A stretch of DNA of 64,000 bases, taken from contig JAITEL010000105.1 in NCBI GenBank assembly GCA_031282065.1, positions 1,772 to 65,771 on the forward strand, written 5' to 3'. The first letter of the stretch is position 1; each line of letters opens with the position of its first letter. Shown piece after piece: positions 31,180 to 59,215 of the stretch. The notes under the pieces are model-generated. The model made no database searches. It was not told the DNA's origin and was given only the letters and a program-made list of their open reading frames with translations. The DNA is from Treponema sp. Lineage in GTDB: Bacteria; Spirochaetota; Spirochaetia; Treponematales; Breznakiellaceae. The position numbers and the translations under genes are program-made.

Positions 31180-32367
31180 GTGGGGATTGGAACCATTTGT
31201 AAAGCCCTGGATGCAGGGGGCTATGCTCTCAAGTTCTGGGGAGTGAGCGCGCTGGATCGCTATCTCACCCTTCCGCCGCTTCCCTATGGCTGGCTTGCAA
31301 CCAATGCGGATATCGTGGCTTTGGTGCGGGCCTTTGAAGGGCTTCGTTTTCCCGGGCCTGCCCTGGCCGACGCGGCATTGGACCTGGAGGAAAGCTGCTG
31401 GTATTTCCGCTGCCTTGAACCGGAAGAAGCCCCCCGCGCTTCCTATCGCTTGCTTTCGCTTACCCAGGATATCAAGACCCGGCGCTTTCAGGATCCCCTG
31501 GGGATCTATCCTTGCTTGCGGGAGCTTGCAGAGAGGCCCCTTGGCAGGGACAAGGCCCCTCCCTGGTGGGAAGGGCTCAATCCTGAGGCCGACTACTATC
31601 AAGCCGCGCTGGAGGGGGCCCTCATCTTGGCCCGCTACGGCGGGGAAGGGGCGGTTCCCCTCTCCTCCCTGGGACTATCCCTTACGGCACTGCCCCGCAC
31701 CGGGTCTCCCAATCCTGAATGGCAGCGCCTCCTCTTAAAGAGCCTCTTGGTATCAAAGCGGCCTGACCGGGGCTTTAAGCTGCTCAAGGCAGCAGGGCTG
31801 GTGGAAGCGCTCTGGCCGGAACTGCTGCGCTTGGACGAGGTGGATCACAGCAAAGAATGTCATCCTGAAGGAAACGGCTGGAACCATACCCTGGAAACCT
31901 TCCGCTACCGCAAACCCCTAAGCCCTAAAGAGCCGCGGTATGATTTCCGCCTTTCCCTGGGCCTCTTGCTCCACGATGTGGGAAAACCCCTCTCCGCCGC
32001 GAGGGGGAAGCATCCCTTTGCCAGCCATGCAGAGCTGGGGGCCGAGCTTGCCTCCCGCTTCCTCACGCGCCTGGGATTTGATGAGGCCCTCATTAACGAT
32101 ATACGGTACCTGGTGAGAAACCACATGCTGCCTGCTGCCCTGCCCCGCGTCCCCTTGCATAAGCACCGGGATATCCTTGCATCCCCCTTGTTTCCCACCC
32201 TCCTGGAACTCTACCGGTGTGATGAAGCCTCCTCATTTAAGGGTCTTGAAGGGTACTACCGGTCTGCCGCGGCATATCAGGGCTATCTCAAAAAGTGCCG
32301 CCCCCCGGCCGCGCTGCGATCCGTTCCATATATAAACGGGAAGGGTAATCACCGGTATCCAGGCTGA
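31180..32367 (+). CDS. HD-domain protein related to the C-terminal region of CCA-adding / poly(A) polymerase family enzymes
   Basis: HPEGNGWNHTLETF and LLHDVGKP motifs. I could not recognise the N-terminal nucleotidyltransferase GG-x-VRD / DxD motif. The 3' end overlaps the convergent cyclase gene by about 80 bp. Confidence 0.55.
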   Translation: MGIGTICKALDAGGYALKFWGVSALDRYLTLPPLPYGWLATNADIVALVRAFEGLRFPGPALADAALDLEESCWYFRCLEPEEAPRASYRLLSLTQDIKTRRFQDPLGIYPCLRELAERPLGRDKAPPWWEGLNPEADYYQAALEGALILARYGGEGAVPLSSLGLSLTALPRTGSPNPEWQRLLLKSLLVSKRPDRGFKLLKAAGLVEALWPELLRLDEVDHSKECHPEGNGWNHTLETFRYRKPLSPKEPRYDFRLSLGLLLHDVGKPLSAARGKHPFASHAELGAELASRFLTRLGFDEALINDIRYLVRNHMLPAALPRVPLHKHRDILASPLFPTLLELYRCDEASSFKGLEGYYRSAAAYQGYLKKCRPPAALRSVPYINGKGNHRYPG

Positions 32368-34135
32368 GCGCCTGGGAAAAATACTGCCTTGCGGTTTCCC
32401 ATTCCTCCAGCGCATAGAGCTTAAGCCCCTTGTTGTAGTGAGCCAGAAGTTCCCGGTTAAGCACGAGGCAGGGGGGCAGGTCCCCTGCCCGGGAGTCATC
32501 GCTGTACACGGCATAGACCCCGTAGAGCTCCACCGGCTCTTCCTTCCCTTTGACCTGGACGCTGTCGAACTTTCTAAAAATAAAACGGTGCTTAGCCGCC
32601 TCGTACAGCGCAGCGGACGCCATAATCGGATGCCGGTAGACCTTGCTCAGCTCTTCCAGCCGGGAGGCAAGGTTTACCGTATCCCCTATGACCGTGTAGT
32701 CCTGTTTATCTTGGAAACCGATGTTCCCCACCACGGATTTCCCGTAATTAAGCCCTATGCCCACGGCAAAACCGCTTTCCGGGAGGCGTATCTTCGAGGT
32801 GTCCACCCGGGAGAGGGCTTGTATCATGCTCAGAGCCGCACGAATGGCACAAGCCGGGGCATCCTGCAGGGTTTTGGGCGAGCCGAAGACAGCCATGATG
32901 GCGTCCCCTATGAACTTATCGATGTTTCCCCCGGCAGCGATAATTTTGTTACCCATAAGGGCAAAGTAGGCGTTCAAAAAGGTAACGATATCCTGGGCAT
33001 TGGTATGCTCGGAAATCTTGGTGAAATTGCGTATATCCGAAAAAAGCACCGCCACGTTCCGGGTTTCACTCTGGCTTAAGGCGAGGGATGGCGTATCAAT
33101 GATCTCATCCATCACCTCAATAGGGACATACCGGGCAAAAGCGGTCCGGGTTTTTACCTGTAATGCTTCAAGCCGGCGCAGTGAAAGGGCATTGGCAATA
33201 ATAGGGGCTGCCGCAGCCAAAAAGATGCCGAGATTTTCCTGTATGACCGGCGAGAAGTAGTCTTTAATCGAATTGGCCATATTCACCGTGGCAAAGCGCT
33301 CCCCCCCTATGGACAAGGGGATGGAGAGGTAGGATTCTATCCGCTTCCGGTACGAACCGGGAAGGGCAAAATCCTTGTTATGCAGGGAGAGCACCTTAAA
33401 GTCCGGGAACAGGCCCTGGAAATCCGCCCGGGTAATCGCGGTGAAATCATCCGCAATGGAGGCGGCGTAGGCGGCTCTATTGCTGGTGTAGACCAAGAGG
33501 GTGGTAGGGCTGCTCTTGATCATAACCGAGGCTATTCCGGTCTCGCAGATATAGGTCAATAATTCAAATATCCCCTTAAGGATATCTTCCAGGGACTCCA
33601 GTTTGCTGGATAGTTCCGCCAGCATCCCGATGATGGTCATTTGAAAGAGCTTGGTATCCAAGAGGTTATTGACCATCTCGATAAGGGTGGTATCGTTGAT
33701 CCGCCTTCCCTCTTTTTCAATGGCCCGGTGATCAATGTCTTGAAACGCGGAGAGCAGGAGATGGATCTGCTCTTTGAGGGCAGCGAAATTGTCCGGGGAC
33801 TTTTCAATGTAGCAATCCGCCCCTGCCTGGCCTCCCCAGAAGCGGTCCTTCGTTTCGTTCAACGCGGTAAGCATGATGATGGGTATCGCCTTGGTATACT
33901 TGCGGGATTTTAAGAGCCGTGTGGCCTGATACCCCTTAAACAGGGGCATTTCTATATCCGTGATGATGAGGTGGGGAAGGAATTGATAGACCTGCTTGAT
34001 TCCCTCAAAGCCATTGACCGCCCGCCGGGTTTGATACCCTGCTTCATGTAAGACTTCCAAAAGGATATCCGCAAAGATATCCGAATCTTCAAACACCACT
34101 ATCCGCTTGCCCGTTTCCGGTATAGCCTCAGCCAT
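32288..34135 (-). CDS. response regulator: REC - GAF-like - class III nucleotide cyclase - TPR-like tail
   Basis: REC (VVFEDSD, IITDIEMP, AGADCYIEK). Cyclase core (VLFSDIRNFT, IDKFIGDAIMAVFG, DYTVIGDTVNLASRLE). ATG 34135 overlaps the cheA stop as ATGGCTGA; an alternative TTG start lies at 34147. Confidence 0.85.
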   Translation of the reverse strand: MAEAIPETGKRIVVFEDSDIFADILLEVLHEAGYQTRRAVNGFEGIKQVYQFLPHLIITDIEMPLFKGYQATRLLKSRKYTKAIPIIMLTALNETKDRFWGGQAGADCYIEKSPDNFAALKEQIHLLLSAFQDIDHRAIEKEGRRINDTTLIEMVNNLLDTKLFQMTIIGMLAELSSKLESLEDILKGIFELLTYICETGIASVMIKSSPTTLLVYTSNRAAYAASIADDFTAITRADFQGLFPDFKVLSLHNKDFALPGSYRKRIESYLSIPLSIGGERFATVNMANSIKDYFSPVIQENLGIFLAAAAPIIANALSLRRLEALQVKTRTAFARYVPIEVMDEIIDTPSLALSQSETRNVAVLFSDIRNFTKISEHTNAQDIVTFLNAYFALMGNKIIAAGGNIDKFIGDAIMAVFGSPKTLQDAPACAIRAALSMIQALSRVDTSKIRLPESGFAVGIGLNYGKSVVGNIGFQDKQDYTVIGDTVNLASRLEELSKVYRHPIMASAALYEAAKHRFIFRKFDSVQVKGKEEPVELYGVYAVYSDDSRAGDLPPCLVLNRELLAHYNKGLKLYALEEWETARQYFSQALSLDTGDYPSRLYMERIAARPGGGTF

Positions 34136-36323
34136 GAGCTGCTCCAATCAGATCCCGCACCGCGGTAATCAAATTATGGTTGTTAAAGGAATGCTTAATG
34201 ATATACCGGTTGGCCCCCAACAGAGCCGCCTGTTTCTGATCCTCTTCACTGGATTTTGATGAAATCACGATGATCGGAATCCCTGCCAGGTCCTTGTTCT
34301 TCCGTATGTTTTCCGTAAGCATAAATCCATCCATCTGCGGCATATTGAGGTCTGTACAGATCAAATCATAGTGCGTATGCTTTGCCGCCATAAGGGCCTG
34401 AGAACCGTCCGCCGCGGTATCTACGGTATAGCCCTCTGCCAGGAGTATGTCCCGTTCAATCTCCCGGGTAGGCAGGGAATCATCCACAATCAGAATGGCC
34501 TTGCGCACCTTTTCATGATCTATATGCCGTTTTTTGAGATCCCACACGCTCATCCGTTTGGTCATTTTAATGAGGGTGGGTACATGGAGGGCCGGTACCA
34601 TCTCGTAATCTTCACTGAGGACCACCCCGGAAAAGACACGCATCTCCTCGATAAAAGAAGGCATGGATTTGAGGATCACCGAGCGCATGTTACTGATCCG
34701 GTCTACCGCAAGGGCAATGATTTCATCATAGGCCTTGAGGATGACCACAAAGAGGGTCTCCTGTTCCTGAGGCTGCTCCGCGCTCCCAATACGCAGGAGC
34801 TGGTTGAGGTAGTACAGTTTAACGATATGGTTGCTGAATTTGATCCCCGGATGATCCACCACGGTGATGATGGCGTCCTGGTTGACCAGCAGAACCGTAT
34901 CCACAAAGTTCGCAGGAATGATACATTTCATTTCCCCGCAGCTCACCGGAAACCCTATGAGGGAGGCAATAGACAGGGGCACCAGAATGATAAAGGCGGT
35001 TCCTTTCCCCGGGCTGCTTTCCACGAAGATGCTGCCCTTCATGTGTTCAACGCTGCTGCGCACCGCATCCATACCCACGCCCCGGCCTGACACGGTACTT
35101 ACCCGGGAGGACGTGGTAAACCCGGTTTGAAAGATATAGTTGATGAGTTCTTCCCGGCTCAGGTTGGCCGCGTGTTCCGGCGGGAGGAGTTCCCGTTCCA
35201 GGATTTTTTTTCTGATGGCCTCAGTATTAATGCCCCGGCCGTCATCGGCGATGCGGATCTTCATGCTTCCGCTTTCACGGATACAGTGAATGCTGAGCCG
35301 TCCGCTCTCCGGTTTTCCCGCTTTCCGGCGTTCTTCCGGGCTTTCTATGCCGTGGTCTATGGCGTTCCTGACCGTATGGAGAAAGACCTCCGAGAGGGTT
35401 TCGATGATATTCTTATCGATCTCGTTTTCCGCTCCTTCCAGGTCTAACTGCACCTGCTTACCCAGTTCCGAGGCAATCTCAAAGACGTACCGGGGATAGA
35501 CGTCCAAAACCGTGGACAGGGGCAGCATCCTGAGGGAAATGACGCTGTCATAGGCGCTTTTGGTACGATTCCCCACGTCAATGGCGTGGTTCTTCATTTT
35601 AGAGGTGATTTTTCGGATAAGCTGTTCCAAGCGGCGGAATTCTTTTACCAGGGGGGAGTTTATCTGATTTTCCGCGATGACCATCTTCAAGAATTCGGTA
35701 CATGCTTCATGGACCGTTTCGGCCTCCCGGGAGATATTCTTGGCGCTTATCTCCAGGGCCTGCAGGGACGCGATATACTTGATAATATCGTTTATTTTTT
35801 GTAAGGGTATCCTGATACTTTCGGATTTGAGTTCTTCTATGCGATCCCGTTTTGTTTCGTTTGGAGCGGCCTCCTTTGGCTGAGCTTGGGGGGCCTGGGG
35901 AGCTTCGGGCTTTTCCGGGCTGGGGACGGTAAAATCTTCATTGGCCGCCAGCGCGGCCAGGGCCTGTTCAAAGGCCTGGGTTTCGACGGCATCGGTCTTT
36001 GTTTGCTGTATGGATACGAAGGCAGCCTTGAGCAGGTCCAGGGAAGCCAGGCTCAAGCGCAGGGCCTTGTCTGAGAAGGTAATGCGCTGTTCTTTTACCG
36101 CGATGAATACGCTTTCCAAGGCGTGGGCCACGGCTTCTATATGGATAAATTCCAGCATCCGGGCAGATCCCTTAAGGGTATGCAGGCTGCGCAGCAGGCT
36201 TACGAAGTCATCTTCCAGGGAACCCCCGTCTTTCACATCAAACAAGAGGGTTTCCACGGCCGCAATGTTTTCTATGCCTTCATCGATAAATTTACCGATG
36301 TATTTTTCTTTATTGATCCCCAT
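34128..36323 (-). CDS. cheA: hybrid chemotaxis histidine kinase CheA with C-terminal receiver (CheA-REC)
   Basis: Hpt (LLRSLHTLKGSARML), kinase core (HTVRNAIDHGIE, GRGVGMDAV), CheW-like domain, and C-terminal REC (ILIVDDS, LICTDLNMPQMDG). Confidence 0.9.
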   Translation of the reverse strand: MGINKEKYIGKFIDEGIENIAAVETLLFDVKDGGSLEDDFVSLLRSLHTLKGSARMLEFIHIEAVAHALESVFIAVKEQRITFSDKALRLSLASLDLLKAAFVSIQQTKTDAVETQAFEQALAALAANEDFTVPSPEKPEAPQAPQAQPKEAAPNETKRDRIEELKSESIRIPLQKINDIIKYIASLQALEISAKNISREAETVHEACTEFLKMVIAENQINSPLVKEFRRLEQLIRKITSKMKNHAIDVGNRTKSAYDSVISLRMLPLSTVLDVYPRYVFEIASELGKQVQLDLEGAENEIDKNIIETLSEVFLHTVRNAIDHGIESPEERRKAGKPESGRLSIHCIRESGSMKIRIADDGRGINTEAIRKKILERELLPPEHAANLSREELINYIFQTGFTTSSRVSTVSGRGVGMDAVRSSVEHMKGSIFVESSPGKGTAFIILVPLSIASLIGFPVSCGEMKCIIPANFVDTVLLVNQDAIITVVDHPGIKFSNHIVKLYYLNQLLRIGSAEQPQEQETLFVVILKAYDEIIALAVDRISNMRSVILKSMPSFIEEMRVFSGVVLSEDYEMVPALHVPTLIKMTKRMSVWDLKKRHIDHEKVRKAILIVDDSLPTREIERDILLAEGYTVDTAADGSQALMAAKHTHYDLICTDLNMPQMDGFMLTENIRKNKDLAGIPIIVISSKSSEEDQKQAALLGANRYIIKHSFNNHNLITAVRDLIGAAHG

Positions 36324-37797
36324 GGGCTTTTGACTCTTGTTCGCGGTTTAATACCGATTCCAGTGTATGGGCAAGCTCGGTGAGCCGTTCCGCCGAAGAG
36401 GTGGCCACCTCGGTGGAATGGAGAAAATTATTGAGCCCTCGGGATATATCGGTGATGGCCAGGGTTATCTGTTCACTGGACTTGCGCTGTTTTTGGGTGG
36501 AGACCGTGATGGTCTGCGCCTGATGAGAGGTAATTTCCGCCCCGGAACGGATCTCCTTAAAGATGTCTTCCAGATCTTTGATGAGTTTATACCCCTCGGC
36601 TATTTTATCCGCTCCTTCTTCACTGGAAATGATCAGGGAAGAGGAGGAGTTTTGGATCTCTTCAACCTGTTCTCTAATCTGTTTGGTAAGATTGGCAATA
36701 TCATCGGCCAAACGGTTCACCTCTCCTGCCACTACGGCAAAACGTTTTCCCGTTTCCCCGGCGCTTGCCGCTTCCAGGGCTGCATTGAAGGCAATGACCT
36801 TGGTCTGGTCCGTAATGGTATTGATGATCCGTACGATATCACGGATCTTGGCGATCTTATTCCCCAAAAGCACAATCCCGTTTATGACCCCGTCGTTTTT
36901 GTTTTTAATATCCCCCATCTTTTTGATATTGTTTTTAAGCACCGAGAATCCGGTGATAACGTCATCTTCCATTTTCGCCGCAATCGTGGCAACACTGCCG
37001 GTCTTATCCGCAATATCCGTGGCAATCTTGGCATTCTCGTCAATGGTCCGGGCTATCTCTTCCACGCTTGCCGCCTGACTATTGGCGGTAGTACAGAGCT
37101 CCTTGGAGGAGCGGGAAATTTCATTGGTTGAATTGCGGATGGTTTTCGCGATTTCCCTGGTCTGCATAACCGTTTGCAGGACTGCTTCGGTGATTGCGGT
37201 TTTACGTTCACCCTCCGCCACCTGCTGCAAGAGGCGGCGGTACTGTGCTGCGATAAGGGAACTGATGAAGCCCATGAACAAGAGCAGCAGCGCCCCCAGG
37301 CCAAGCCCTTCATGGGGGAAGCCCCCCGGAGAGGAGGCATTAAGGATGGCTGCTGTACCGATGTACCAGAGTATGGCCATACTGCCCGAAGATACCCCCC
37401 AGGCACGCCGGTAACGCAAGGTACCGAGCATAATGAAGATACCATAAAAGGCTGGCTGCACGGTGAGCAGGGTACGCAGCGGTACCACTTGTTGGGCGAA
37501 TCCGCTGGTAACCAGGCAGGACAGAAGCCCTATATCCCAAAAAGTGGTACCGTAAGTCACCCAAGGCCGAAGGAGGGGGCGTTTACGGATATAGAAGAAC
37601 ACGGCCAGCGTGTAGATGAGAAAAACACCGGGTACGATATACGCGCTCATGCTCAAGGGGGCGCCGCTACGATAAGACCTCACCGCCATGATCCCCGTAC
37701 CAATACCGTACAGGATCCCCAGGGATACCCGAAAATAGGTGATTACCAACTCACCGGTCCCTTTTTCTTGCCGGATGCAGTCCGCAGCTCGTATCAT
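36310..37797 (-). CDS. methyl-accepting chemotaxis protein with 6-TM N-terminal module and no periplasmic domain
   Basis: Six hydrophobic segments in the first 200 aa or so, joined directly to an MCP signalling domain (VIAFNAALEAASAGETGKRFAVVAGEVNRLA). Confidence 0.85.
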   Translation of the reverse strand: MIRAADCIRQEKGTGELVITYFRVSLGILYGIGTGIMAVRSYRSGAPLSMSAYIVPGVFLIYTLAVFFYIRKRPLLRPWVTYGTTFWDIGLLSCLVTSGFAQQVVPLRTLLTVQPAFYGIFIMLGTLRYRRAWGVSSGSMAILWYIGTAAILNASSPGGFPHEGLGLGALLLLFMGFISSLIAAQYRRLLQQVAEGERKTAITEAVLQTVMQTREIAKTIRNSTNEISRSSKELCTTANSQAASVEEIARTIDENAKIATDIADKTGSVATIAAKMEDDVITGFSVLKNNIKKMGDIKNKNDGVINGIVLLGNKIAKIRDIVRIINTITDQTKVIAFNAALEAASAGETGKRFAVVAGEVNRLADDIANLTKQIREQVEEIQNSSSSLIISSEEGADKIAEGYKLIKDLEDIFKEIRSGAEITSHQAQTITVSTQKQRKSSEQITLAITDISRGLNNFLHSTEVATSSAERLTELAHTLESVLNREQESKAHGDQ

Positions 37798-37808
37798 GCT
37801 TTTTCCTT

Positions 37809-39833
37809 TTATTCGGTCCGGTATTGCTCAATAGCCTTCTGTAATCCCGTAGACATGGTGTTTAAGGTATCCGCTATTTTCGAGGTTGAGACGGTAGCCA
37901 CCACAAATTGCTGTACCCCCGCGGATATTTCCTTGAGGGCCTCAAAGATCTGAGCGGAGGCATATTCCTGCTGTTTACTCAAATTGGAAATTTGCTGGGA
38001 TCGGGTCGCCACATTCTGCGCGGTTTCCACAATCGCTTCAAACACCGCTTTTTGGGCGCTCATGTGGTCATACCCTTGCTCGATCTTTTTTGAGCCGTTA
38101 AAGGCTTCGGTGATTAAGGTCTGGGATGCGCTTTGCACCTCTTCGATTTTAAGCTTGATGCCCCGGGTGGAATCCACCACATTATCGGCAAAACGCCTGA
38201 TTTCGCTGGCCACCACCGAGAAGCGGGCCCCGCTCTCCCCTGAAGAAGACGCCTCCAAGGACGCGTTAAAGGCAATGAGCTTCGTCTGATCCGCAATGCC
38301 GTCGATGATTCGGATGGCATCATTGATATGCTTGATCATATCCACCAGGTTTTTAATCTCATAAATAATCTTGGAATTCTGGTTTTGGATATCCTCCATC
38401 ATCTGCTCATTGGCATCCCGTAGGTCCGCTCCTTTTTGGCTGAGCCCTTGGGTCTCTATGGCCAGGTGGGCCACTTCTTCGGTCTTGGCAGCCATCTGTT
38501 CGGAAAGGTTCTTGCTCCCCTCCATAGTGCTGACAATCTCGGAGACACTGGCCGACTGTTCATTGGCGGTGGTGCTAATCTCTTTGGCAGAGGTAGCCAT
38601 ATCTTCACCCATATCCGATAGGGAAAGGGCCTTCTCCTTGAGACCCATGATAAGTTCCCGTATTTTATCCAGGGTGGCATTAAAGGAAGTGGTCATATCC
38701 CCAATTTCATCGTTACTGTGAATATCCAGATGCTTGGTCATGTCCCCTTCCCGGATATCCCCTAAAATAGCCGCCATGTGATTGATGGGTTTGCTGATGG
38801 AACGGGTTATGATAAAGGCCCCCGCGGCTACCAGGAGTATCATCACCACGATAATGATGATGCTCACCAAGAGCATCCGGTATACCGGCATGACGATAAT
38901 ACGGGTGGGGATACCTATCATCAAGGTCCAGGGACGTTCGGTCTCTCCCACCGTGAAAGGGCCGCAGTAGAACTGCATATTCGTCTGTAACGCGGGCACA
39001 TAATTGGTAAAGGAAAACGCCTTGCCCTGGTGTACCGCTGCCATAAGTTCCGGCAAATAGGGGCCGGCAATATCTGCTTCGGTCTCCTGCATGGATTTCC
39101 CCAGCCGGGATTCATCAAAATGAGCGCTCACCACGCCGCCATTGCTGAAGAGCATGGCCACACTGCCCTCATAGGGCTGTATTTGCTGGATCTGAGCCTG
39201 GATATTCGCTATATCAATATCAATGATCGCAGCCCCTATAAACCGGTCATCCTGTTTAATCGGCACAGTTACCGTGGTGACGAGGCGGTTCTCCCCATGA
39301 ATAAGGTACCAATAGGGGTCCATCAGGGATTCCCTGCCGGTTTGTTTTGCGATGAGGTAATAATCCCCCTCTCCGGGGGTTTCATAATTCAGCAAAGGTT
39401 CCAGCTGGATACCCGCTTGGGTTCGCACCAGGTAGGGGATGAATCTGCCGGTATTATCGCTTCCTGGGGTATTGCGATACCGGTCATCCTGGCCGTCCAG
39501 AAGGTTCGGTTCCCATGCAACCGAGGCAGCGGTCATGTCCGTGTTTCCTTCAAGTATTCCCCTCAGCATGGCCAGAAAATAGCGGCGGCGATCGAGCCGA
39601 TCTACCTGCTCATACTGGGACATCATCTTTGACAAAGCCCGGGCGGTATGCACATGTGAGGCAAACCATACCCGAACTCGCAGGGAATTCTCTTCTACCA
39701 GGTTCGTGATTTCGCTCTTTATCAAGGCGGTAATCTGGTGCTGCGAAATCTGAAGCAAGGTAAAGACCAAAATACCGATTCCTAAGAGGTTCAAACTGAT
39801 GATGATCATCATAAGCTTAGTACCGATTTTCAT
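37809..39833 (-). CDS. methyl-accepting chemotaxis protein, Cache-type periplasmic domain plus HAMP
   Basis: Two TM segments flank a periplasmic domain of about 280 aa. HAMP (ISKPINHMAAILGDIREGDMTKHL). MCP hairpin LIAFNASLEASSSGESGARFSVVASEIRRFA. Confidence 0.9.
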   Translation of the reverse strand: MKIGTKLMMIIISLNLLGIGILVFTLLQISQHQITALIKSEITNLVEENSLRVRVWFASHVHTARALSKMMSQYEQVDRLDRRRYFLAMLRGILEGNTDMTAASVAWEPNLLDGQDDRYRNTPGSDNTGRFIPYLVRTQAGIQLEPLLNYETPGEGDYYLIAKQTGRESLMDPYWYLIHGENRLVTTVTVPIKQDDRFIGAAIIDIDIANIQAQIQQIQPYEGSVAMLFSNGGVVSAHFDESRLGKSMQETEADIAGPYLPELMAAVHQGKAFSFTNYVPALQTNMQFYCGPFTVGETERPWTLMIGIPTRIIVMPVYRMLLVSIIIIVVMILLVAAGAFIITRSISKPINHMAAILGDIREGDMTKHLDIHSNDEIGDMTTSFNATLDKIRELIMGLKEKALSLSDMGEDMATSAKEISTTANEQSASVSEIVSTMEGSKNLSEQMAAKTEEVAHLAIETQGLSQKGADLRDANEQMMEDIQNQNSKIIYEIKNLVDMIKHINDAIRIIDGIADQTKLIAFNASLEASSSGESGARFSVVASEIRRFADNVVDSTRGIKLKIEEVQSASQTLITEAFNGSKKIEQGYDHMSAQKAVFEAIVETAQNVATRSQQISNLSKQQEYASAQIFEALKEISAGVQQFVVATVSTSKIADTLNTMSTGLQKAIEQYRTE

Positions 39834-39884
39834 ATGCTACTCCTTATCATCTTTGAAGGGTTCCAATCGCCCTGTTCAAGGTGT

Positions 39885-39902
39885 TTGAACCGCCCTGTTC
39901 AA
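39885..39902. promoter_or_regulatory. inverted repeat TTGAAC-N6-GTTCAA inside the cheR / MCP intergenic gap
   Basis: ttgaaccgccctgttcaa, read directly. It is flanked by two copies of tttgaagggttccaa, two copies of cgccctgttcaa, and the 12-bp palindrome gtgcttaagcac. Confidence 0.3.
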
Positions 39903-39965
39903 AGTGCTTTAAGCACCCGGTTTGAAGGGTTCCAACACAGGCTTAGAATCTCTCTATAACTACAC

Positions 39966-41552
39966 CTACCGGTGTTCATGATGCTTACGTAAGCCCTGGG
40001 TTCGTTGCTGCTCCAAGGCCCGCTGATAATAATCCGGTGAAAATCCTCCAATAAACACTTCATACCCCCGTTCCTTACCTTGCGCAATGCTTTCTAAGGC
40101 TTGGTTGATTTTGTATACATACCGGAGCGGGTTTCCCGGTGCAGCCAGGGAGCTCAGACGGTAAAAAGCAGGCCAAAAGGTTTTGTCTTGCTGGATCGCC
40201 ATTTTATAGGAAGATTCCGCATCCACGGCTTTGGTTTTAAGGTAAAAATATTCCCCCCGGAGAAAATGCGTATACGCTGACGTATCGTACCGCTCAATAA
40301 ATGCCAGCAGACGATCGGCCCTGCAAAAATCCCCTTGATTGATCAACACGATAACCGCTGTGATAAGTTCATTACCCATACAGACCAGCCCCTCAAAGCT
40401 ATCCTGGGGGGTCCTCTTTACGTTCTTTTCTTCCTCATTATCATGGTTATTCCCCGGTTCATCAAGGGTAGGCCCGCAGCCGTCCCTTTCAGCGGGTACT
40501 GCTGAAAGGAATGCCAGGGTTTTTTCAGTGATACGCCGGGCTGCCGGATCATCGGCGATCAGTTCTGCAATACAAAGGGGTTCTATGGTAAGCCCTTTTT
40601 TCCAGGACCGTAGCTGCTGGGGCTTGGGTACTACCCGAAGGCTCCCCGTCTCCTGCGGAACCTTCTGGGACTTCACCGCTTCTTCAGCCCGTTTCTGAAA
40701 GTAAAAGGCATCTTCTTTGAAACAATGAGCCAGCAGGGGATGCACTATTCCGGCAGTTTCGGATATGCCCACCATGAGGTACCCCTGTGGGATAAGCGCA
40801 TCCGCCAGGATAGTCATAACCTTGCTACGGCTTTCATCAGAGAAATAGATGGAGACATTCCTGAAAAAAATCAGATCATAGGATAGGGGAGAAAGGCCGT
40901 CCATAATATTATGCAGATAAAAACGAATGTGGTCTCTCAGCCGGGGATCAACCCGATACTTCCCCCCGATAACTGATACATACCGGTCCAGGAGAAACTT
41001 CCATTGAGTCCCATCCTCTCGAAAGGCATTGGCCCTGTAGTACCCCCTGCCGGCCGTCTCAATCACATCCTGGTCTATATCAAAGGCATCGATCTCCCAG
41101 GAAAAGGAGCTGGGCCCTGAGAGCTGCTTATAATAGTCCAGCACCATGGCAATACTGTAGGCCTCGCAGCCTATAGAAGTCGCGGCAGAACAGATCCGCA
41201 CAGGACGGCCTAAGGTGGAAAGCCTGGGCAAGAGTTCTTTAAGTAACACGGAAAAATGTACCTGCTCCCTGAAAAAATACGTTTCATTCACCGTAAGCAA
41301 GCGGGCCAGATCAAAGAGGGCTTCAGGAGAGGAAAAAATACACCCATACCTTTCCCGGTCCCCGGACAGTCCAGGAAGGGCTTCATGCTGAGCTGCCCGG
41401 TTGGGGATCTGCTTGAGATAGTTCCTCAAATGCACCAGAGCCTCAGGGCTTGCCCGAATCCCCAGGGTATGCTCCACCTGCTCATAAAGCTGGCATAGAA
41501 GCGGATCATCGAACTGAGCTTCCTTCATATAAACCGGGGATCCCCTTTCCAT
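39966..41552 (-). CDS. cheR: chemotaxis protein methyltransferase CheR with C-terminal TPR-like domain
   Basis: TYFFREQVHF, RICSAATSIGCEAYSIAM and IFFRNVSIYF blocks, followed by a helical-repeat C-terminus of about 150 aa. Confidence 0.85.
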   Translation of the reverse strand: MERGSPVYMKEAQFDDPLLCQLYEQVEHTLGIRASPEALVHLRNYLKQIPNRAAQHEALPGLSGDRERYGCIFSSPEALFDLARLLTVNETYFFREQVHFSVLLKELLPRLSTLGRPVRICSAATSIGCEAYSIAMVLDYYKQLSGPSSFSWEIDAFDIDQDVIETAGRGYYRANAFREDGTQWKFLLDRYVSVIGGKYRVDPRLRDHIRFYLHNIMDGLSPLSYDLIFFRNVSIYFSDESRSKVMTILADALIPQGYLMVGISETAGIVHPLLAHCFKEDAFYFQKRAEEAVKSQKVPQETGSLRVVPKPQQLRSWKKGLTIEPLCIAELIADDPAARRITEKTLAFLSAVPAERDGCGPTLDEPGNNHDNEEEKNVKRTPQDSFEGLVCMGNELITAVIVLINQGDFCRADRLLAFIERYDTSAYTHFLRGEYFYLKTKAVDAESSYKMAIQQDKTFWPAFYRLSSLAAPGNPLRYVYKINQALESIAQGKERGYEVFIGGFSPDYYQRALEQQRTQGLRKHHEHR

Positions 41553-41555
41553 ATC

Positions 41556-42578
41556 CTATAGTCCTCCTTGAGGCATGGTTAAGGCGATAAGCCATTTGGC
41601 TATATCGCTCAGGGGCAAAATCATATCCACACACCCGGTTTCTATGGCTGATTTCGGCATACCGTAAATCAAGGAGCTCTCTTCGTTCTGGGCAATGGTA
41701 ATGCCCCCGGCTTTTCGGACGGCCTCGGTACCTGCAGCCCCATCCCTCCCCATACCGGTGAGGACCACCGAGATTACCCCCCGGCCAAAGACCCCGGCAG
41801 CGCTCTGAAACAGCCTATCCACGGCAGGTTTCTGGTTTTGGACCGGCTCACCGTCTTCGAGGATCAGATATTTACCGGTCATAATAAGGTGTTTATCCGT
41901 AGGGGCAATATAGATCGTTCCTGCATGGAACACCGCTTCATGCTCCGCAAGCTCTACCTCCAGGGCTGTGTATCGCCGTATCCATTGTACAAACCCTCTA
42001 TCGAACCCTGAGGAATTATGCTGTACCGTTACAATCGGCACCGGGAAATTTTTGGGAATCCCCGCAAATACCTCCATGAGGGCCTTAGGGCCGCCGGTAG
42101 AAGCCCCGATGACCACTCCGCGAATGGGACGGTATACTAGCTTTCCCTGAGATGACCCGTAAGTAGGATCAGGGCCTCTGTGTTTTTTGCGCTTGATCCC
42201 CGAAATACGGTTGAGCGTTTCATAAATATCCTGGCGTTGTGAGTGACTCATGGATGGGGTGAAAATATGCTTAGGATAAAATTCGAGGGCGCCCTTTACC
42301 GTGGCTTCATAGACTATCTTGGCACTGTCTTGAGAGCTGATTACCACAATCGGGGTTGGTATATCCCGCATGATGATGCTGATGGCCTCAAGTCCTGACA
42401 TACCAGGCATATCGAGATCCATAGTAATCAGGTCTGGGTTCAGGGACCGGGTTTGCTGCACCCCTTCAAAGCCATTCCCTGCTTCGCCAATGACGGTAAA
42501 CCGTTTATCCCTTTCAAAAAAATCCTTGAGAAAGCTTCGGGTCAAGGGATTATCATCTACCACGAGGACACTAATCAT
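41556..42578 (-). CDS. cheB: protein-glutamate methylesterase CheB (REC plus methylesterase)
   Basis: REC (VLVVDDN, ITMDLDMPGMSG) and the esterase domain (GASTGGPKAL, VQHNSSGF, GMGRDGA). Confidence 0.9.
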   Translation of the reverse strand: MISVLVVDDNPLTRSFLKDFFERDKRFTVIGEAGNGFEGVQQTRSLNPDLITMDLDMPGMSGLEAISIIMRDIPTPIVVISSQDSAKIVYEATVKGALEFYPKHIFTPSMSHSQRQDIYETLNRISGIKRKKHRGPDPTYGSSQGKLVYRPIRGVVIGASTGGPKALMEVFAGIPKNFPVPIVTVQHNSSGFDRGFVQWIRRYTALEVELAEHEAVFHAGTIYIAPTDKHLIMTGKYLILEDGEPVQNQKPAVDRLFQSAAGVFGRGVISVVLTGMGRDGAAGTEAVRKAGGITIAQNEESSLIYGMPKSAIETGCVDMILPLSDIAKWLIALTMPQGGL

Positions 42579-43063
42579 AATCCCCGGTCCCTGTGCCTCA
42601 AGAATTGGGAAACCAGCAAAACCGGGTCAATGAAGGCCGTCATCCTCATACCGGTAAAGGATACGCCTTTCAGAAAGGGTAGTCTTCCCGGAAGCCCGAT
42701 GAAGGCGGGAAGTTCCCGGATTGCTTCAGGGGGAATATCCGCTTCCGTTTCTACCGCGGTGGTAACCAGCACCACACGAGGGGCCTCAAGCCCGGTATAT
42801 TCCCGCAGTGCCCCGACCGACGTCTCCGGGTAGGCGAGCGGTTTCAAGCAAATCCCGTGGGGAGCGGGCACAGCTGCTCTGCAGAAAAACCGGGGGAGTG
42901 AGAGAAACACCGCTCCCTTATCTGGCTTGGTCTCTATCAGCGCATGAATATCCGGGAAGACCTGTATGATCTCTGCTACACACTCCGAAGGAAACCCTAA
43001 GAAGATACCCTCAAAGGTGCATAAAAAATTTCTCATATATCCTAGAGCATCCTCATGCCTCAA
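42575..43063 (-). CDS. divergent CheW-like coupling protein
   Basis: Size, position and the pattern FLCTFEGIFLGFPSECVAEIIQV resemble a degenerate CheW domain. It overlaps the cheB start (ATGA) and the cheW end. Confidence 0.5.
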   Translation of the reverse strand: MRHEDALGYMRNFLCTFEGIFLGFPSECVAEIIQVFPDIHALIETKPDKGAVFLSLPRFFCRAAVPAPHGICLKPLAYPETSVGALREYTGLEAPRVVLVTTAVETEADIPPEAIRELPAFIGLPGRLPFLKGVSFTGMRMTAFIDPVLLVSQFLRHRDRGL

Positions 43064-43529
43064 AATCCTTCTTTATCCGGTTAATAATCTCTCGAATACT
43101 CAGAATAAATACATCTCTCTGGTGCCATTCAAAAGAGGCATCAATAACCGCAGTAGTATCCTGGTTTTCCGTACCCTGTTCAACCTTCAATATGTTCCCC
43201 ACCGGTACATCCACAATATCCACCACATCGTCAATCATAAAGGCCAATTTATCCACCGATTCTTTTAGTACCACTACTTTGGACAAGGTCGAGGGAGTCT
43301 TGAGCATGAACAATCCCAGGTCAATGAGCGCATAGGGTACGGAATAGCGGTTAATAATACCCTTTACATACTCAGGTAGCAAGGGTAGAGGATAGGCTTT
43401 ATCATAAGCTGCCACTTCATTTATCATACGGGAGGGAAGGGTGTACAATCTTTCCTGTATGGTAAAGATAAGGAATTTCTCCATGCTGGCTCCGTTGGCT
43501 TGTTGTAAAGTGGTCGTATCGTTCATCAT
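43053..43529 (-). CDS. cheW: chemotaxis coupling protein CheW
   Basis: FLIFTIQERLYTLPSRMINEV...PEYVKGIINRYSVPYALIDL is a typical CheW domain. It is the first gene of the operon. Confidence 0.8.
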   Translation of the reverse strand: MMNDTTTLQQANGASMEKFLIFTIQERLYTLPSRMINEVAAYDKAYPLPLLPEYVKGIINRYSVPYALIDLGLFMLKTPSTLSKVVVLKESVDKLAFMIDDVVDIVDVPVGNILKVEQGTENQDTTAVIDASFEWHQRDVFILSIREIINRIKKDFEA

Positions 43530-43702
43530 TCCATTTCCTTAGTGTTCAAGAGTACCTTCCGCTGCTTCTTTTTGCATGTCCCTTGACGATTAATCAAGAA
43601 ACCGGTACCCTATACAATATAATAATTAAGTAACCTGAGCTAGTTTCAAAATTTGGTATTTTGAAGTAGCCTCATCTATAGGTAGGGGTAGAGGAGTATA
43701 CT

Positions 43703-43855
43703 ATGGCTGAAGTAGCTTGCGAGAATTGCGGAAAAACTATTTTAGAAGAAAACGTCAGATATGGAGATTGTAAGCAATGTTCACTCTGCGATGATTGTGT
43801 AACGAATTGGATTGCTCAAGATTGTAAAGCCTGTAAAGATAGAAAAGAGGAGTAA
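43703..43855 (+). CDS. 50-aa Cys8 zinc-ribbon/RING-like mini-protein (not in the ORF track, below the size cut-off)
   Basis: GAGGAG lies 6 nt upstream of the ATG. Translation: MAEVACENCGKTILEENVRYGDCKQCSLCDDCVTNWIAQDCKACKDRKEE. Four CxxC pairs. AT-rich intergenic setting. Confidence 0.35.
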   Translation: MAEVACENCGKTILEENVRYGDCKQCSLCDDCVTNWIAQDCKACKDRKEE

Positions 43856-44005
43856 TATCTCTCCCCGGGCTATTTTTCCGTGCGAGCCTAGTTTTATATA
43901 CAACAACTTAAAGCACAATAGTTCATTCTAGAAAGTCTTAGTATCAAGATGATCCTTCCGGGTCCCATAGTCCCGGAAGCAAGTTGTTTATATTCACGGT
44001 GCCCC

Positions 44006-56374: not shown

Positions 56375-59062
56375 TTAAAAAGATGCCACGGTGATTGATT
56401 CCACCCTATAGGAGACTTTCTCATCGTGGGTGGCAAAATCAAACTGTTCTCCCAGGGACTTATTGAGAAGACTTATGCCAAAGGGAGAGAGATAGGAAAT
56501 GATCTTATGCTCCGGGTCTGATTCCCAGGGACCGAGGATGGTGTACTCTTCTTTGGCGCCATTGGCGCTGTTTACCAAGGTAACCCGGGTCCCGAAGGAC
56601 ACCCGGTTCGTATTGATAGTCCCCGGATCAAAGAGCTGGGCCCGTTCAATTTCATCCTTGAGTCTTGCCACGGTGGTATTGAGGAGCTCCTGTTTTTCCT
56701 TGGCCGCCTTGTACTCTGCATTCTCCCGCAGATCCCCCAAGGAGAGGGCAAAGGCGATTTCCTTGGAATTTGCCGGGACCTCCACGTTCATGATATGAGC
56801 CAGCTGCCGTTGTTTCTCCTCATACATGGCAACCGTAACCATGAGTCCACGGGTGCTCACCGTCTTCTCCACATCTCCGAAAAATTTGAAGTTCGGGTAT
56901 TTATCCAGAATGCGGTTGCGCAATCTGAACTTGTCCGTGGGATCCAGATCCTTCACATCGTTAATGAAGGTGAAGATGCGGATGATGGTATCGGGATCTG
57001 CGCCGTCAATAAAGGTGCTGAGGAGCCCGTCCTTAAACAAGAGGGTATACACCTGCTTGTTGATCTTCCGGTTTTCTGCGGTATCCCGGTGATTTTCTAT
57101 GTCACGGTAGCTCATATCCAGGATATGGATCAGGGTGATGAGCTGTTTTTCCTCAGGAATTCCGGCCTTTTTAAACCAAGGACTTTCCTTGCTGTTTTTG
57201 AACAGCCATACCGTGGCTTCTTTATAGTCCCGGTAGTTTTCAAAACAACTGAGCACCAAAGAGACCAGCTTAGCTTCATGCCCGGCTTTCTCCAAGTTCA
57301 CGATGATGGAATTGAGCAGGGCATAGGGAAAGAGCTGGATGTACTCATCTGCCCAGTGGGGTATAAAGAGCTTGATATGATGCAAGAAGGCCTCTTTTAA
57401 TTTAGTATCCTTCAAGTTTGAAAACACCATCGGTATATCATCAATCGCATTAAAAATATCCAGGAAATTCAAGGATAAGGTGTTCCCCAGGTGGGGATAG
57501 ACAGCTATCAGATCCTTTACCAGGAGGTAGGAAGCCAGGACCTGTTCATTGATCTGCGAAGGGGAGCGAAGATACCCGGTAAAATAGGCGAGCATCTCGG
57601 TAAAATATTCCGAATCCAGTTCCGCATCTTTTTGCGCCACATAGTTTCGCAGGGTTTCCACCCGGTCAAAGAAATTCCGTTCCGCCTTAAACTCGTTATA
57701 GAGCTTTTCCTCAATGCTGATAGGCCGTTCCCGGACCGTATAGACATCAATGTTTTCAGGGCTGACCCCAAAGGAAGGGTCTGTTTTGAGAATCTCCCGG
57801 GATTTGGAGCTCCAGGTGGTCCATTCCCCGATGGAAAGCACCGAGGGCACCAGTTCCCCTTTAATCCGCTTAATATCACAGGCATTATCAAAGCTCTTGA
57901 TCACGGTTTTAAGGGCCCAGGCAAAGTCGTTTTTGATCCGCTCGTGGAGTTTTTCCTTTTTCTGGGTGGCCTTCAAAACCCAGATATGGTTTTTCGACAG
58001 GGTTTGCAGGGCATTAATCGCCATTTTAAGGGACATGGCATGTTCCCGCTTCTTGGCAAAATCAATGACGATCTCGTCCCCCTTCACACTGGCGATGCGT
58101 CCCACCCCCCAGGTCCGGTGATAGACGAAGTTGCCCTTATCAAAGGCTATGTGTTTCTCAAAGTCCGTGATGGCTTCATGGATATTGCGCCAATGCTGGG
58201 AAAGATTGGAGATCCGGATGTATTCTTCGAGCTGGCTATGCTGGACGTATTTCTTTCTGAAACAGTCGATGATCTCTTTTCGTGCTTGGTTATCCCGTTC
58301 ATCGTATTGCAGGATCAGTTTTAAGATGCTGATGGCGGTGTTAATATCCTCCCGCTTCCTACAAGAGGCGTACACATCCTGGAGGAGGAGCACCGCCTTA
58401 TCCTCGCTGATGTTTCGGGCGATCTTCTTCTCCACATGGAGAAAGAAATCTATATCCTCCGGGCAATAGCCCAGGAGTTTCTCCCAGATCTCCTTCACAT
58501 TGGTAAAGAGCTGTTTATTGATGTACCGGTGCAGGGCTTTTTTATAGTAATCCACTGCATTGTCCCTATCCCCCTGGGCTTCAAAGTATTCCCCTAAGGA
58601 TTTGGCGATATCCGCCTCTTCCAGATCCACCTTGACCAGCCGTTCCCAGATACCATAAATGGCTTCTTCCTGGTTCTCGTTCTTATAACAGTCTATCAGG
58701 GTCCTCAGGGCGAACTTAGATTCGCCGTAATCCAGGATCCGTTCACAGAGGTAGCGGACAATACTCCATTTATGGTTGTCCGCAAAAATGCTTACCAGGT
58801 TTATCAAGGCTGCATCATCAATGATCTGCCGGGAGAGGGCAATCATTCCTGAAAGATAGAGCGCGATGATGCTGTTCTTGGTATGTACCAGATGTTCATC
58901 GCAATGCTTCTTAAGATCATCATATACGCGTGCTTCCAGCGCCTCTTTCAGGATAAGATCCAACTCCTTGAACTGGTTGGTAGAATAATTACTGAGGGTG
59001 GCTCGGGTCCACTTTTCTTCATTCAGCATTTCCTGTACGTTTTTAAGGAGAGCTTCAGACAT
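56375..59062 (-). CDS. greA: transcription elongation factor GreA, long spirochete-type form
   Basis: The C-terminal 150 aa or so are canonical GreA (DLRENAEYKAAKEKQELLNTTVARLKDEIERAQ, SYLSPFGISLLNKSLGE). About 740 aa of helical N-terminal extension. GAGGAG RBS upstream of ATG 59062. Confidence 0.8.
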   Translation of the reverse strand: MSEALLKNVQEMLNEEKWTRATLSNYSTNQFKELDLILKEALEARVYDDLKKHCDEHLVHTKNSIIALYLSGMIALSRQIIDDAALINLVSIFADNHKWSIVRYLCERILDYGESKFALRTLIDCYKNENQEEAIYGIWERLVKVDLEEADIAKSLGEYFEAQGDRDNAVDYYKKALHRYINKQLFTNVKEIWEKLLGYCPEDIDFFLHVEKKIARNISEDKAVLLLQDVYASCRKREDINTAISILKLILQYDERDNQARKEIIDCFRKKYVQHSQLEEYIRISNLSQHWRNIHEAITDFEKHIAFDKGNFVYHRTWGVGRIASVKGDEIVIDFAKKREHAMSLKMAINALQTLSKNHIWVLKATQKKEKLHERIKNDFAWALKTVIKSFDNACDIKRIKGELVPSVLSIGEWTTWSSKSREILKTDPSFGVSPENIDVYTVRERPISIEEKLYNEFKAERNFFDRVETLRNYVAQKDAELDSEYFTEMLAYFTGYLRSPSQINEQVLASYLLVKDLIAVYPHLGNTLSLNFLDIFNAIDDIPMVFSNLKDTKLKEAFLHHIKLFIPHWADEYIQLFPYALLNSIIVNLEKAGHEAKLVSLVLSCFENYRDYKEATVWLFKNSKESPWFKKAGIPEEKQLITLIHILDMSYRDIENHRDTAENRKINKQVYTLLFKDGLLSTFIDGADPDTIIRIFTFINDVKDLDPTDKFRLRNRILDKYPNFKFFGDVEKTVSTRGLMVTVAMYEEKQRQLAHIMNVEVPANSKEIAFALSLGDLRENAEYKAAKEKQELLNTTVARLKDEIERAQLFDPGTINTNRVSFGTRVTLVNSANGAKEEYTILGPWESDPEHKIISYLSPFGISLLNKSLGEQFDFATHDEKVSYRVESITVASF

Positions 59063-59215
59063 CTCATAACTCCTCGCCCTAGGGGCACTACAATCAAGCC
59101 TGGAGCAGTATCCTGCTCCTTCTAGCATACCCCTGAAGGTCTTTTTTAAAACTTAAGCGAGTTTTGCAAAAGACCTCAGGGTATACGTGAAAAATCACGC
59201 ATCCTTCCGTCTATC

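Follow-up and report, generated by a model that had tools for sequence, protein, structure and literature searches.

A conserved spirochaete chemosensory module with a predicted adenylate cyclase output that probably links chemical sensing to cAMP

A cluster of chemosensory (che) genes that ends in a gene for a receiver-fused nucleotide cyclase was analysed here within a 64-kb stretch of Treponema DNA, which we refer to as the window and in whose numbering all positions are given. The cluster consists of eight open reading frames (ORFs) on the minus strand, all in one direction and spanning 43529-32288, in the order cheW, cheW-like, cheB, cheR, mcp1, mcp2, cheA-REC (a kinase gene with a fused receiver, REC) and a gene encoding REC, a GAF-like domain, a cyclase domain and a TPR-like tail. 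The original prediction, which had been made by reading the letters of this DNA, proposed eight co-directional genes with this part list and this order, and ORF positions and Pfam matches bear it out; the annotation with profile models (Pfam and NCBIfam) that it had suggested as a check confirmed the gene identities. The features, all on the minus strand, and the basis of each assignment are as follows.

43530..44005, minus: upstream non-coding region of ~475 nt, candidate promoter region
43053..43529, minus: cheW, 158 aa (Pfam CheW)
42575..43063, minus: divergent cheW-like gene, 162 aa from TTG (slot conservation, CheW profile alignment)
41556..42578, minus: cheB, REC and methylesterase, 340 aa (Pfam, NCBIfam)
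39966..41552, minus: cheR with a C-terminal TPR-like extension of ~125 aa, 528 aa in total (Pfam CheR)
39834..39965, minus: cheR-mcp1 spacer with direct repeats (repeat positions)
37809..39833, minus: mcp1, dCache/PDC-HAMP receptor, 674 aa (Pfam, transmembrane segments)
36310..37797, minus: mcp2, receptor with six predicted transmembrane segments, 495 aa (Pfam MCPsignal, transmembrane segments)
34128..36323, minus: cheA-REC, hybrid kinase, 731 aa (Pfam, conserved motifs)
32288..34135, minus: output gene, REC/GAF-like/predicted class IIIb cyclase/TPR, 615 aa from ATG (Pfam, catalytic residues)

The genes are packed tightly, as had also been predicted, and each overlap or abutment was found where it had been placed. 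The cheW and cheW-like genes overlap by 11 nt (43053/43063), the cheW-like gene and cheB share an ATGA at 42575-42578, gaps of 3 nt and 11 nt separate cheB from cheR (41552/41556) and mcp1 from mcp2, respectively, and mcp2 and cheA overlap by 14 nt (36310/36323). At the last junction, which carries ATGGCTGA at 34128-34135, the ATG of the cyclase gene (at 34135, within an ORF covering 32288-34147 on the minus strand) overlaps the TGA of cheA by 8 nt, and a GGAG sits 6 nt upstream of this ATG. The only real spacer in the operon is the 132 nt between cheR and mcp1. On this layout, the eight genes would form one co-transcribed unit.

The output protein, which is identical to an NCBI protein of a Treponema metagenome-assembled genome (MAG), matches Pfam Response_reg and Guanylate_cyc (PF00211, E 9e-28) and, below threshold, TPR_1, and its relatives are found mostly in termite-gut Treponema/Spirochaetaceae MAGs and in Treponema primitia. 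Residue conservation was followed first in an alignment of 14 relatives and then in 328 family members. The cyclase domain holds the complete class III catalytic set, with D367 and D411 for metal binding, K407 and T481 for substrate binding, and N488 and R492 for the transition state, and all six residues are intact in 328 of the 328 family members. K407 and T481 align with the Lys and Thr of Pseudomonas aeruginosa CyaB and CyaC; in the guanylyl cyclase Cya2, these two positions hold Glu and Gly instead. On this basis, the substrate is predicted to be ATP and the enzyme to be an adenylate cyclase of class IIIb. It would act as a homodimer with cyclic AMP (cAMP) as its product. The receiver likewise has its full phospho-site set (E16/D17, D60, T90 and K112), and 114 of 120 close relatives and 99 of 100 moderately distant ones share the intact quintet. 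No clear transmembrane segment was found in this protein by hydrophobic-segment prediction. Its C-terminus departs from that of most relatives, which carry a conserved '...PPPxDWDxTxTxTEK' tail that the window protein does not have.

The domain between receiver and cyclase is GAF-like, as judged from models. In the AlphaFold2 (AF2) model, it has a pLDDT of ~80-87 and runs as helix, two strands, helix, three strands and a long helix; the top Foldseek match of the model is 6oap, a REC-GAF dual-sensor kinase (E 1e-9, ~347 columns); and Pfam GAF_2, which is sub-threshold for the window protein (E 0.15), gives a weak match in 8 of 10 orthologues (best E 8.5e-4). The cyclase domain is poor in this model. 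The architecture of REC, GAF-like domain, class III cyclase and TPR-like tail put forward in the original prediction is supported by these data, with sub-threshold Pfam matches for the GAF-like and TPR-like parts. Elsewhere, a paralogue (L051:9947-12748) outside any che cluster carries a REC/GAF-like module 72% identical to cyclase residues 10-334, joined to HisKA-HATPase-REC-Hpt with no cyclase. Because this paralogue reuses the module with another output, the REC/GAF-like module looks like a portable regulatory unit.

The gene immediately upstream encodes a hybrid CheA, as originally predicted, with Pfam Hpt, HATPase_c, CheW (P5) and Response_reg domains and a dimerisation region; it has no P2 domain, and a Pro/Ala/Gln-rich linker takes its place. 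The His48 motif LHTLKG, the N, G1, F and G2 boxes and the receiver Asp are kept in seven orthologues from three clades. The core of a Che pathway is thus encoded together here, with receptor, CheW, and a CheA with Hpt, kinase and P5 domains all matched above the Pfam cut-offs. The first gene, which is cheW in related loci too, gives an above-cut-off Pfam CheW match (E 4.6e-15). CheR (Pfam CheR, E 4e-37) and CheB (Pfam CheB_methylest, E 1.2e-61, and Response_reg, E 1e-20; NCBIfam CheB, 302 bits, above cut-off) supply both members of a methylation-based adaptation pair.

Two of the smaller assignments needed evidence from relatives. The 162-aa product of the second gene has no Pfam match of its own. 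Its slot is occupied by an ORF in 31 of the 31 loci tested, 8 of 30 aligned sequences from this slot match Pfam CheW (best E 6e-7), the profile of the slot aligns colinearly with that of CheW (residues 9-158 versus 16-156; hhalign P 1e-3), and its PDB profile matches are to CheW only. Because of this combination of slot conservation, Pfam matches in relatives, profile alignment and PDB matches, we assign the second gene as a divergent CheW-like protein on sequence grounds, in line with the original prediction. Its Met10 is almost invariant, which suggests that the true start lies at 43036 rather than at the TTG. The TPR tail predicted for CheR fared less evenly: a C-terminal block of ~125 residues does exist and is conserved in 31 loci, whereas its identity as TPR is weakly suggested by sub-threshold matches. 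Pfam at default thresholds gave no match in the CheR C-terminus; of 14 orthologues scanned one by one, six had sub-threshold TPR_2 matches and four had TPR_16 (best E 2.8e-4), the PDB profile matches are to Cut9/Cdc16, and NCBIfam YbgF matches at E 0.006.

The two receptors differ in their sensing parts. MCP1 has Pfam MCP-like_PDC_1, dCache_1, HAMP and MCPsignal domains and transmembrane segments at residues 9-27 and 320-338, the layout of a two-segment receptor with a periplasmic dCache/PDC sensor. MCP2 gives MCPsignal (E 1.7e-32) as its sole Pfam domain, with no HAMP and no periplasmic domain, and has six hydrophobic segments within residues 18-183. The Cache-HAMP and six-segment receptors of the original prediction are thus both recovered. 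Both align to the P. aeruginosa CtpM model without a net indel (for MCP2, 280 residues against 280 positions) and are ~30 aa longer than the Tsr/Tar models, and this signalling-domain length is presumably that of the 40-heptad (40H) receptor class.

The spacer that precedes mcp1 contains two tandem 23-nt copies at 39860-39905, flanked by a perfect 15-nt direct repeat, TTTGAAGGGTTCCAA, at 39852-39866 and 39921-39935. Because the same spacer measures only ~30 nt in the closest relatives, the 132-nt version may represent inserted sequence, or it may serve as an internal promoter or regulatory site. A promoter-like site lies upstream of cheW at 43649-43622. A scan of the operon for promoters and terminators was no richer than shuffled sequence (18 versus 12.7 +/- 3.7; 20 versus 14.2 +/- 3.9) and is uninformative on internal promoters. 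No Rfam family was found in the window, upstream region included, by a gathering-threshold search.

Among the neighbours checked, the operon is flanked by housekeeping or transport genes and none is flagellar, in agreement with the predicted lack of flagellar switch genes. A phmmer search of all six-frame window ORFs with E. coli CheY returned only the three receiver domains of the operon, so the claim that the window holds no single-domain CheY stands. Nor does the window contain a CheX, CheZ or CheC/D gene, type IV pilus genes, PilG/PilH-type regulators or a separate CyaB, and phmmer found no CRP-like protein in it. Several other features of the window were noted in passing. An HD-domain gene (31180-32367, plus strand) is convergent with the cyclase gene and overlaps its 3' end by 80 nt (32288-32367). 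Upstream of cheW, a 50-aa Cys-rich ORF of zinc-ribbon-like pattern (CxxC...CxxCxxCxxC...CxxC) lies on the opposite strand at 43703-43855 (plus), near a terminator-like hairpin at 43866-43847. Farther away, at 56375-59128 (minus), a 917-aa protein has GreA/GreB domains confined to its last ~155 residues, following an N-terminal extension of ~750 aa that has no Pfam match.

The arrangement is widespread. A genome scan returned 63 loci, ~55 of them from Treponema/Spirochaetaceae at 52-83% identity, and synteny was read from tblastn with all eight operon proteins against these loci. In ~50 of the Treponema/Spirochaetaceae loci, wherever the contig is long enough, cheA lies directly upstream of the cyclase gene, and the full gene order is retained in most loci; an orthologous cluster is present in the cultivable Treponema primitia (L014). 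An all-against-library search and two follow-up searches defined two further clades, which we call P0126-like and P0137-like. In distant relatives (~30-40% identity), cheA directly precedes the cyclase gene in 10 of 10 cases, and all ten contexts hold cheW, a small ORF (absent from L074), cheB, cheR, cheA/REC and the cyclase gene, with receptor genes before or after this cheW-to-cyclase core. The survey for cyclase genes beside cheA-REC that the original prediction had proposed therefore yields an adjacency recurring in >55 independent genomes, down to ~28% identity, and because of this recurrence the arrangement is not due to chance. The ATG of the cyclase gene overlaps the stop of cheA in 38 of 42 evaluable loci, with a median of -8 nt, and the GGAG upstream is conserved; together, these features indicate that the cyclase is translationally coupled to cheA.

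Variation is seen around this core. The number of receptor genes per module ranges from 1 to 4, and these genes precede cheW, lie between cheR and cheA or follow the cyclase gene (L042-L045, L056; L067-L070, L073, L074), while the stretch from cheW to the cheA-cyclase pair stays fixed; L074 is without the CheW-like second gene. In five loci that have four receptor genes, the third has been relocated to just after the cyclase gene, and L008 has the cheA-cyclase pair by itself, preceded by unrelated genes. Weak scan matches outside spirochaetes (L058-L064) are receiver-only or REC-GGDEF proteins and are uninformative on the architecture.

A variant that bears on the mechanism is the P0137-like clade, which comes mostly from animal-gut Treponema and whose cyclases (P0370-P0476) are ~30% identical to the window protein. 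While the catalytic residues are intact in 108 of these 108 cyclases, an intact receiver is found in 0 of 108: the Lys is replaced in all 108, the acidic pair is usually lost, and 84 have another residue, mostly Tyr, Ser or Asn, in place of the acceptor Asp. In the window clade and the P0126-like clade, by contrast, the receiver is intact in 213 of 220. The expectation that degenerate-receiver cyclases would sit outside che clusters was refuted, as all five P0137-like contexts (L068, L069, L070, L073 and L074) have the cyclase gene directly after cheA in the same cheW-cheB-cheR-cheA/REC-cyclase operon. At the one such junction that was measured (L070), the cyclase gene overlaps the cheA stop by the same -8 nt, and the CheA proteins of these operons retain the Hpt His, the kinase boxes and the C-terminal receiver. 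Because this clade keeps the operon, the linkage of cheA and cyclase is not strictly dependent on a phosphorylatable cyclase receiver. The cyclase of the window lineage most likely functions as a genuine phospho-accepting regulator; in our reading, the association of CheA with the cyclase additionally has a component that outlasts the loss of the phospho-site, for example, contact with the CheA receiver or TPR docking.

Taking these data together, we judge it fairly probable that the operon encodes a non-motility, Wsp-like pathway of the alternative cellular function (ACF) type, with a dedicated adenylate cyclase output reached through phosphotransfer from CheA. In such a pathway, the dCache receptor and the membrane-embedded six-segment receptor would feed an array of CheW, the CheW-like protein and CheA, and the CheA-REC hybrid would autophosphorylate on its Hpt histidine. 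The phosphoryl group would then pass to CheB, for adaptation together with CheR, to the C-terminal receiver of CheA itself, and to Asp60 of the cyclase receiver; phosphorylation of Asp60, relayed by the GAF-like domain and the long helix, would alter the activity of the homodimeric cyclase and hence cAMP synthesis. Of the Che-to-cAMP interpretation first advanced for this locus, the part list, the intact catalytic and phospho-acceptor residues, the translational coupling to cheA and the deep conservation of the module stand as observed, whereas co-transcription, phosphoryl transfer to the cyclase receiver, the sign of the regulation, cAMP as the product and the downstream targets are what we infer.

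Several points weigh against this pathway as drawn. Because the clade with degenerate receivers keeps the operon, Asp phosphorylation alone may not explain the coupling, and our confidence in a purely phosphotransfer mechanism was lowered to its present level. The receiver of the hybrid CheA could itself be the main phosphoryl acceptor, the cyclase domain of the AF2 model is of low confidence, and the 132-nt repeat-bearing spacer could harbour an internal promoter. The cyclase might instead be a component or client of the array that is controlled mainly by protein contact rather than by phosphorylation of Asp60, through pairing of the cyclase (pseudo)receiver with the receiver of CheA or through TPR docking to CheR or the array, with the intact receiver of the window lineage as an added or ancestral layer. 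We regard this as unlikely, although it would account for the five of five P0137-like contexts that keep the operon with no intact receiver among 108 cyclases, for the 8-nt overlap in L070, for a CheA receiver intact in all clades and for the TPR-like tails shared by CheR and the cyclase. The 213 intact receivers among 220 in the other two clades are hard to explain without phosphorylation, and the pseudo-receivers may be no more than the trace of a control that one lineage has secondarily lost. More doubtful still is the proposal that the cyclase is a built-in output subunit of the array, on which the phosphorylated CheA receiver or TPR docking acts by contact and for which, as the clade of pseudo-receivers hints, phosphorylation of the cyclase Asp would be dispensable. 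If true, it would constitute a phosphorylation-independent output mechanism for Che pathways, and termite-gut acetogenic treponemes might then integrate signals from chemoreceptors with the sensitivity to bicarbonate/CO2 that is typical of class IIIb cyclases.

It is quite improbable that the operon is a taxis system whose CheA phosphorylates, in addition or as its main target, a CheY from elsewhere in the genome and so steers the periplasmic flagella, with the cyclase as a side branch or phosphate sink. A full CheB/CheR adaptation set and receptors of 40H length are typical of taxis systems as well, and the visible part of the genome is 64 kb; against this, the window contains neither CheY, CheX, CheZ or CheC/D nor any further receiver, the neighbours checked are housekeeping genes and none is flagellar, and the ten distant contexts are alike in this. 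In addition, the kinase is a REC hybrid that lacks P2, and the motility operon of spirochaetes is of the different composition cheA-cheW-cheX-cheY. Least probable of all, in our estimation, is that the cyclase is merely co-located and its receiver served by another histidine kinase, or that its nucleotide product is not cAMP. The pairing of kinase and receiver is unreadable from sequence and a substrate prediction from two residues is fallible; yet the gene pair, with stop and start overlapping, recurs in >55 genomes at identities as low as ~28%, and the Lys/Thr pair is that of the proven adenylate cyclases CyaB and CyaC, unlike that of the guanylyl cyclase Cya2.

Chemosensory pathways that do not control motility are common but few are understood, and Wsp, which acts through cyclic di-GMP (c-di-GMP), is the main model. 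We propose that the operon represents a widespread and conserved chemosensory module of spirochaetes whose predicted adenylate cyclase output probably converts chemical sensing to cAMP. Such a module would tie chemoreceptors to cAMP directly and in a genetically compact form, and it is conserved in spirochaetes of termite guts, animal guts and other habitats, with hundreds of genomes carrying it. The module, a related copy of which lies in T. primitia, offers a tractable system for the drive of a class III cyclase by a Che array. Moreover, sister clades that have the same operon with intact or degenerate cyclase receivers constitute a natural experiment, and this contrast can separate phosphorylation-dependent from contact-dependent coupling.

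With regard to known systems, full-text literature searches turned up no experimental work on Che pathways whose output is a class III cyclase fused to a receiver, in agreement with the original prediction, in which no pathway of this kind was known to have been characterised. Among the regulator outputs named in a 2012 survey of CheR-TPR proteins is 'mononucleotidyl cyclase'; neither Treponema nor Spirochaeta appears in that survey, and its Table S2 gives a 'REC - CHD mononucleotidyl cyclase' regulator for a che cluster of the delta proteobacterium NaphS2 (PMC3447774). That cluster, which contains a CheR-TPR, resembles ours in its receiver-cyclase response regulator; it belongs to another phylum and is known as a survey-table entry, and we found no other earlier mention of the architecture. 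Two spirochaetes, Leptospira interrogans and Treponema denticola, were among the bacteria richest in adenylate cyclases in a 2005 census (PMC1183210). In the Pil-Chp system of P. aeruginosa, phosphorylation of PilG is needed for activation of CyaB, by an unknown mechanism (PMC12129077). There, too, cAMP levels are under the control of a chemosensory system that acts through a class IIIb cyclase, and CyaB is among the closest solved relatives of the catalytic domain of the Treponema operon. CyaB, however, is a separate membrane protein that has no receiver and is encoded elsewhere, and Chp is tied to type IV pili and single-domain regulators, whereas the Treponema cyclase carries a receiver in the same protein and is encoded by a gene that overlaps cheA. 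Because of the NaphS2 entry and the indirect control of CyaB by Chp, the architecture is not conceptually unprecedented. In cyanobacterial CyaC, phosphorylation of the receiver activates the type IIIb adenylate cyclase (PMC3009899). This protein shares with the Treponema output protein the union of a receiver, a GAF domain (GAF-like in the Treponema protein) and a class IIIb cyclase in one chain, but it has its own histidine kinase and no Che cluster, whereas the kinase here is a CheA under receptor and methylation control.

Multidomain response regulators and CheR-TPR proteins are a mark of ACF pathways, and WspC is a CheR with a C-terminal TPR (PMC3447774). The Treponema operon has a multidomain output regulator, no flagellar or type IV pilus genes nearby and no single-domain CheY. 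The analogy with Wsp on which the original prediction was built extends to the part list, with a receptor, a pair of CheW-type couplers, CheR and CheB, a hybrid CheA-REC kinase and, as the last component, a second-messenger synthase fused to a receiver, as well as to the logic of receptor, phosphorylated CheA and REC-enzyme. Differences exist in the two receptors, one of them with six transmembrane segments, in the gene order, in the far more divergent second CheW and in the phylum, Spirochaetota. Above all, WspR is a REC-GGDEF protein, whereas Pfam finds no GGDEF domain in the output protein of this operon, which joins a GAF-like domain and a TPR-like tail to a predicted class III adenylate cyclase. 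Because a REC-GGDEF output is absent, the operon is not a member of the Wsp family; that it is functionally Wsp-like, with cAMP in the place of c-di-GMP, is well supported.

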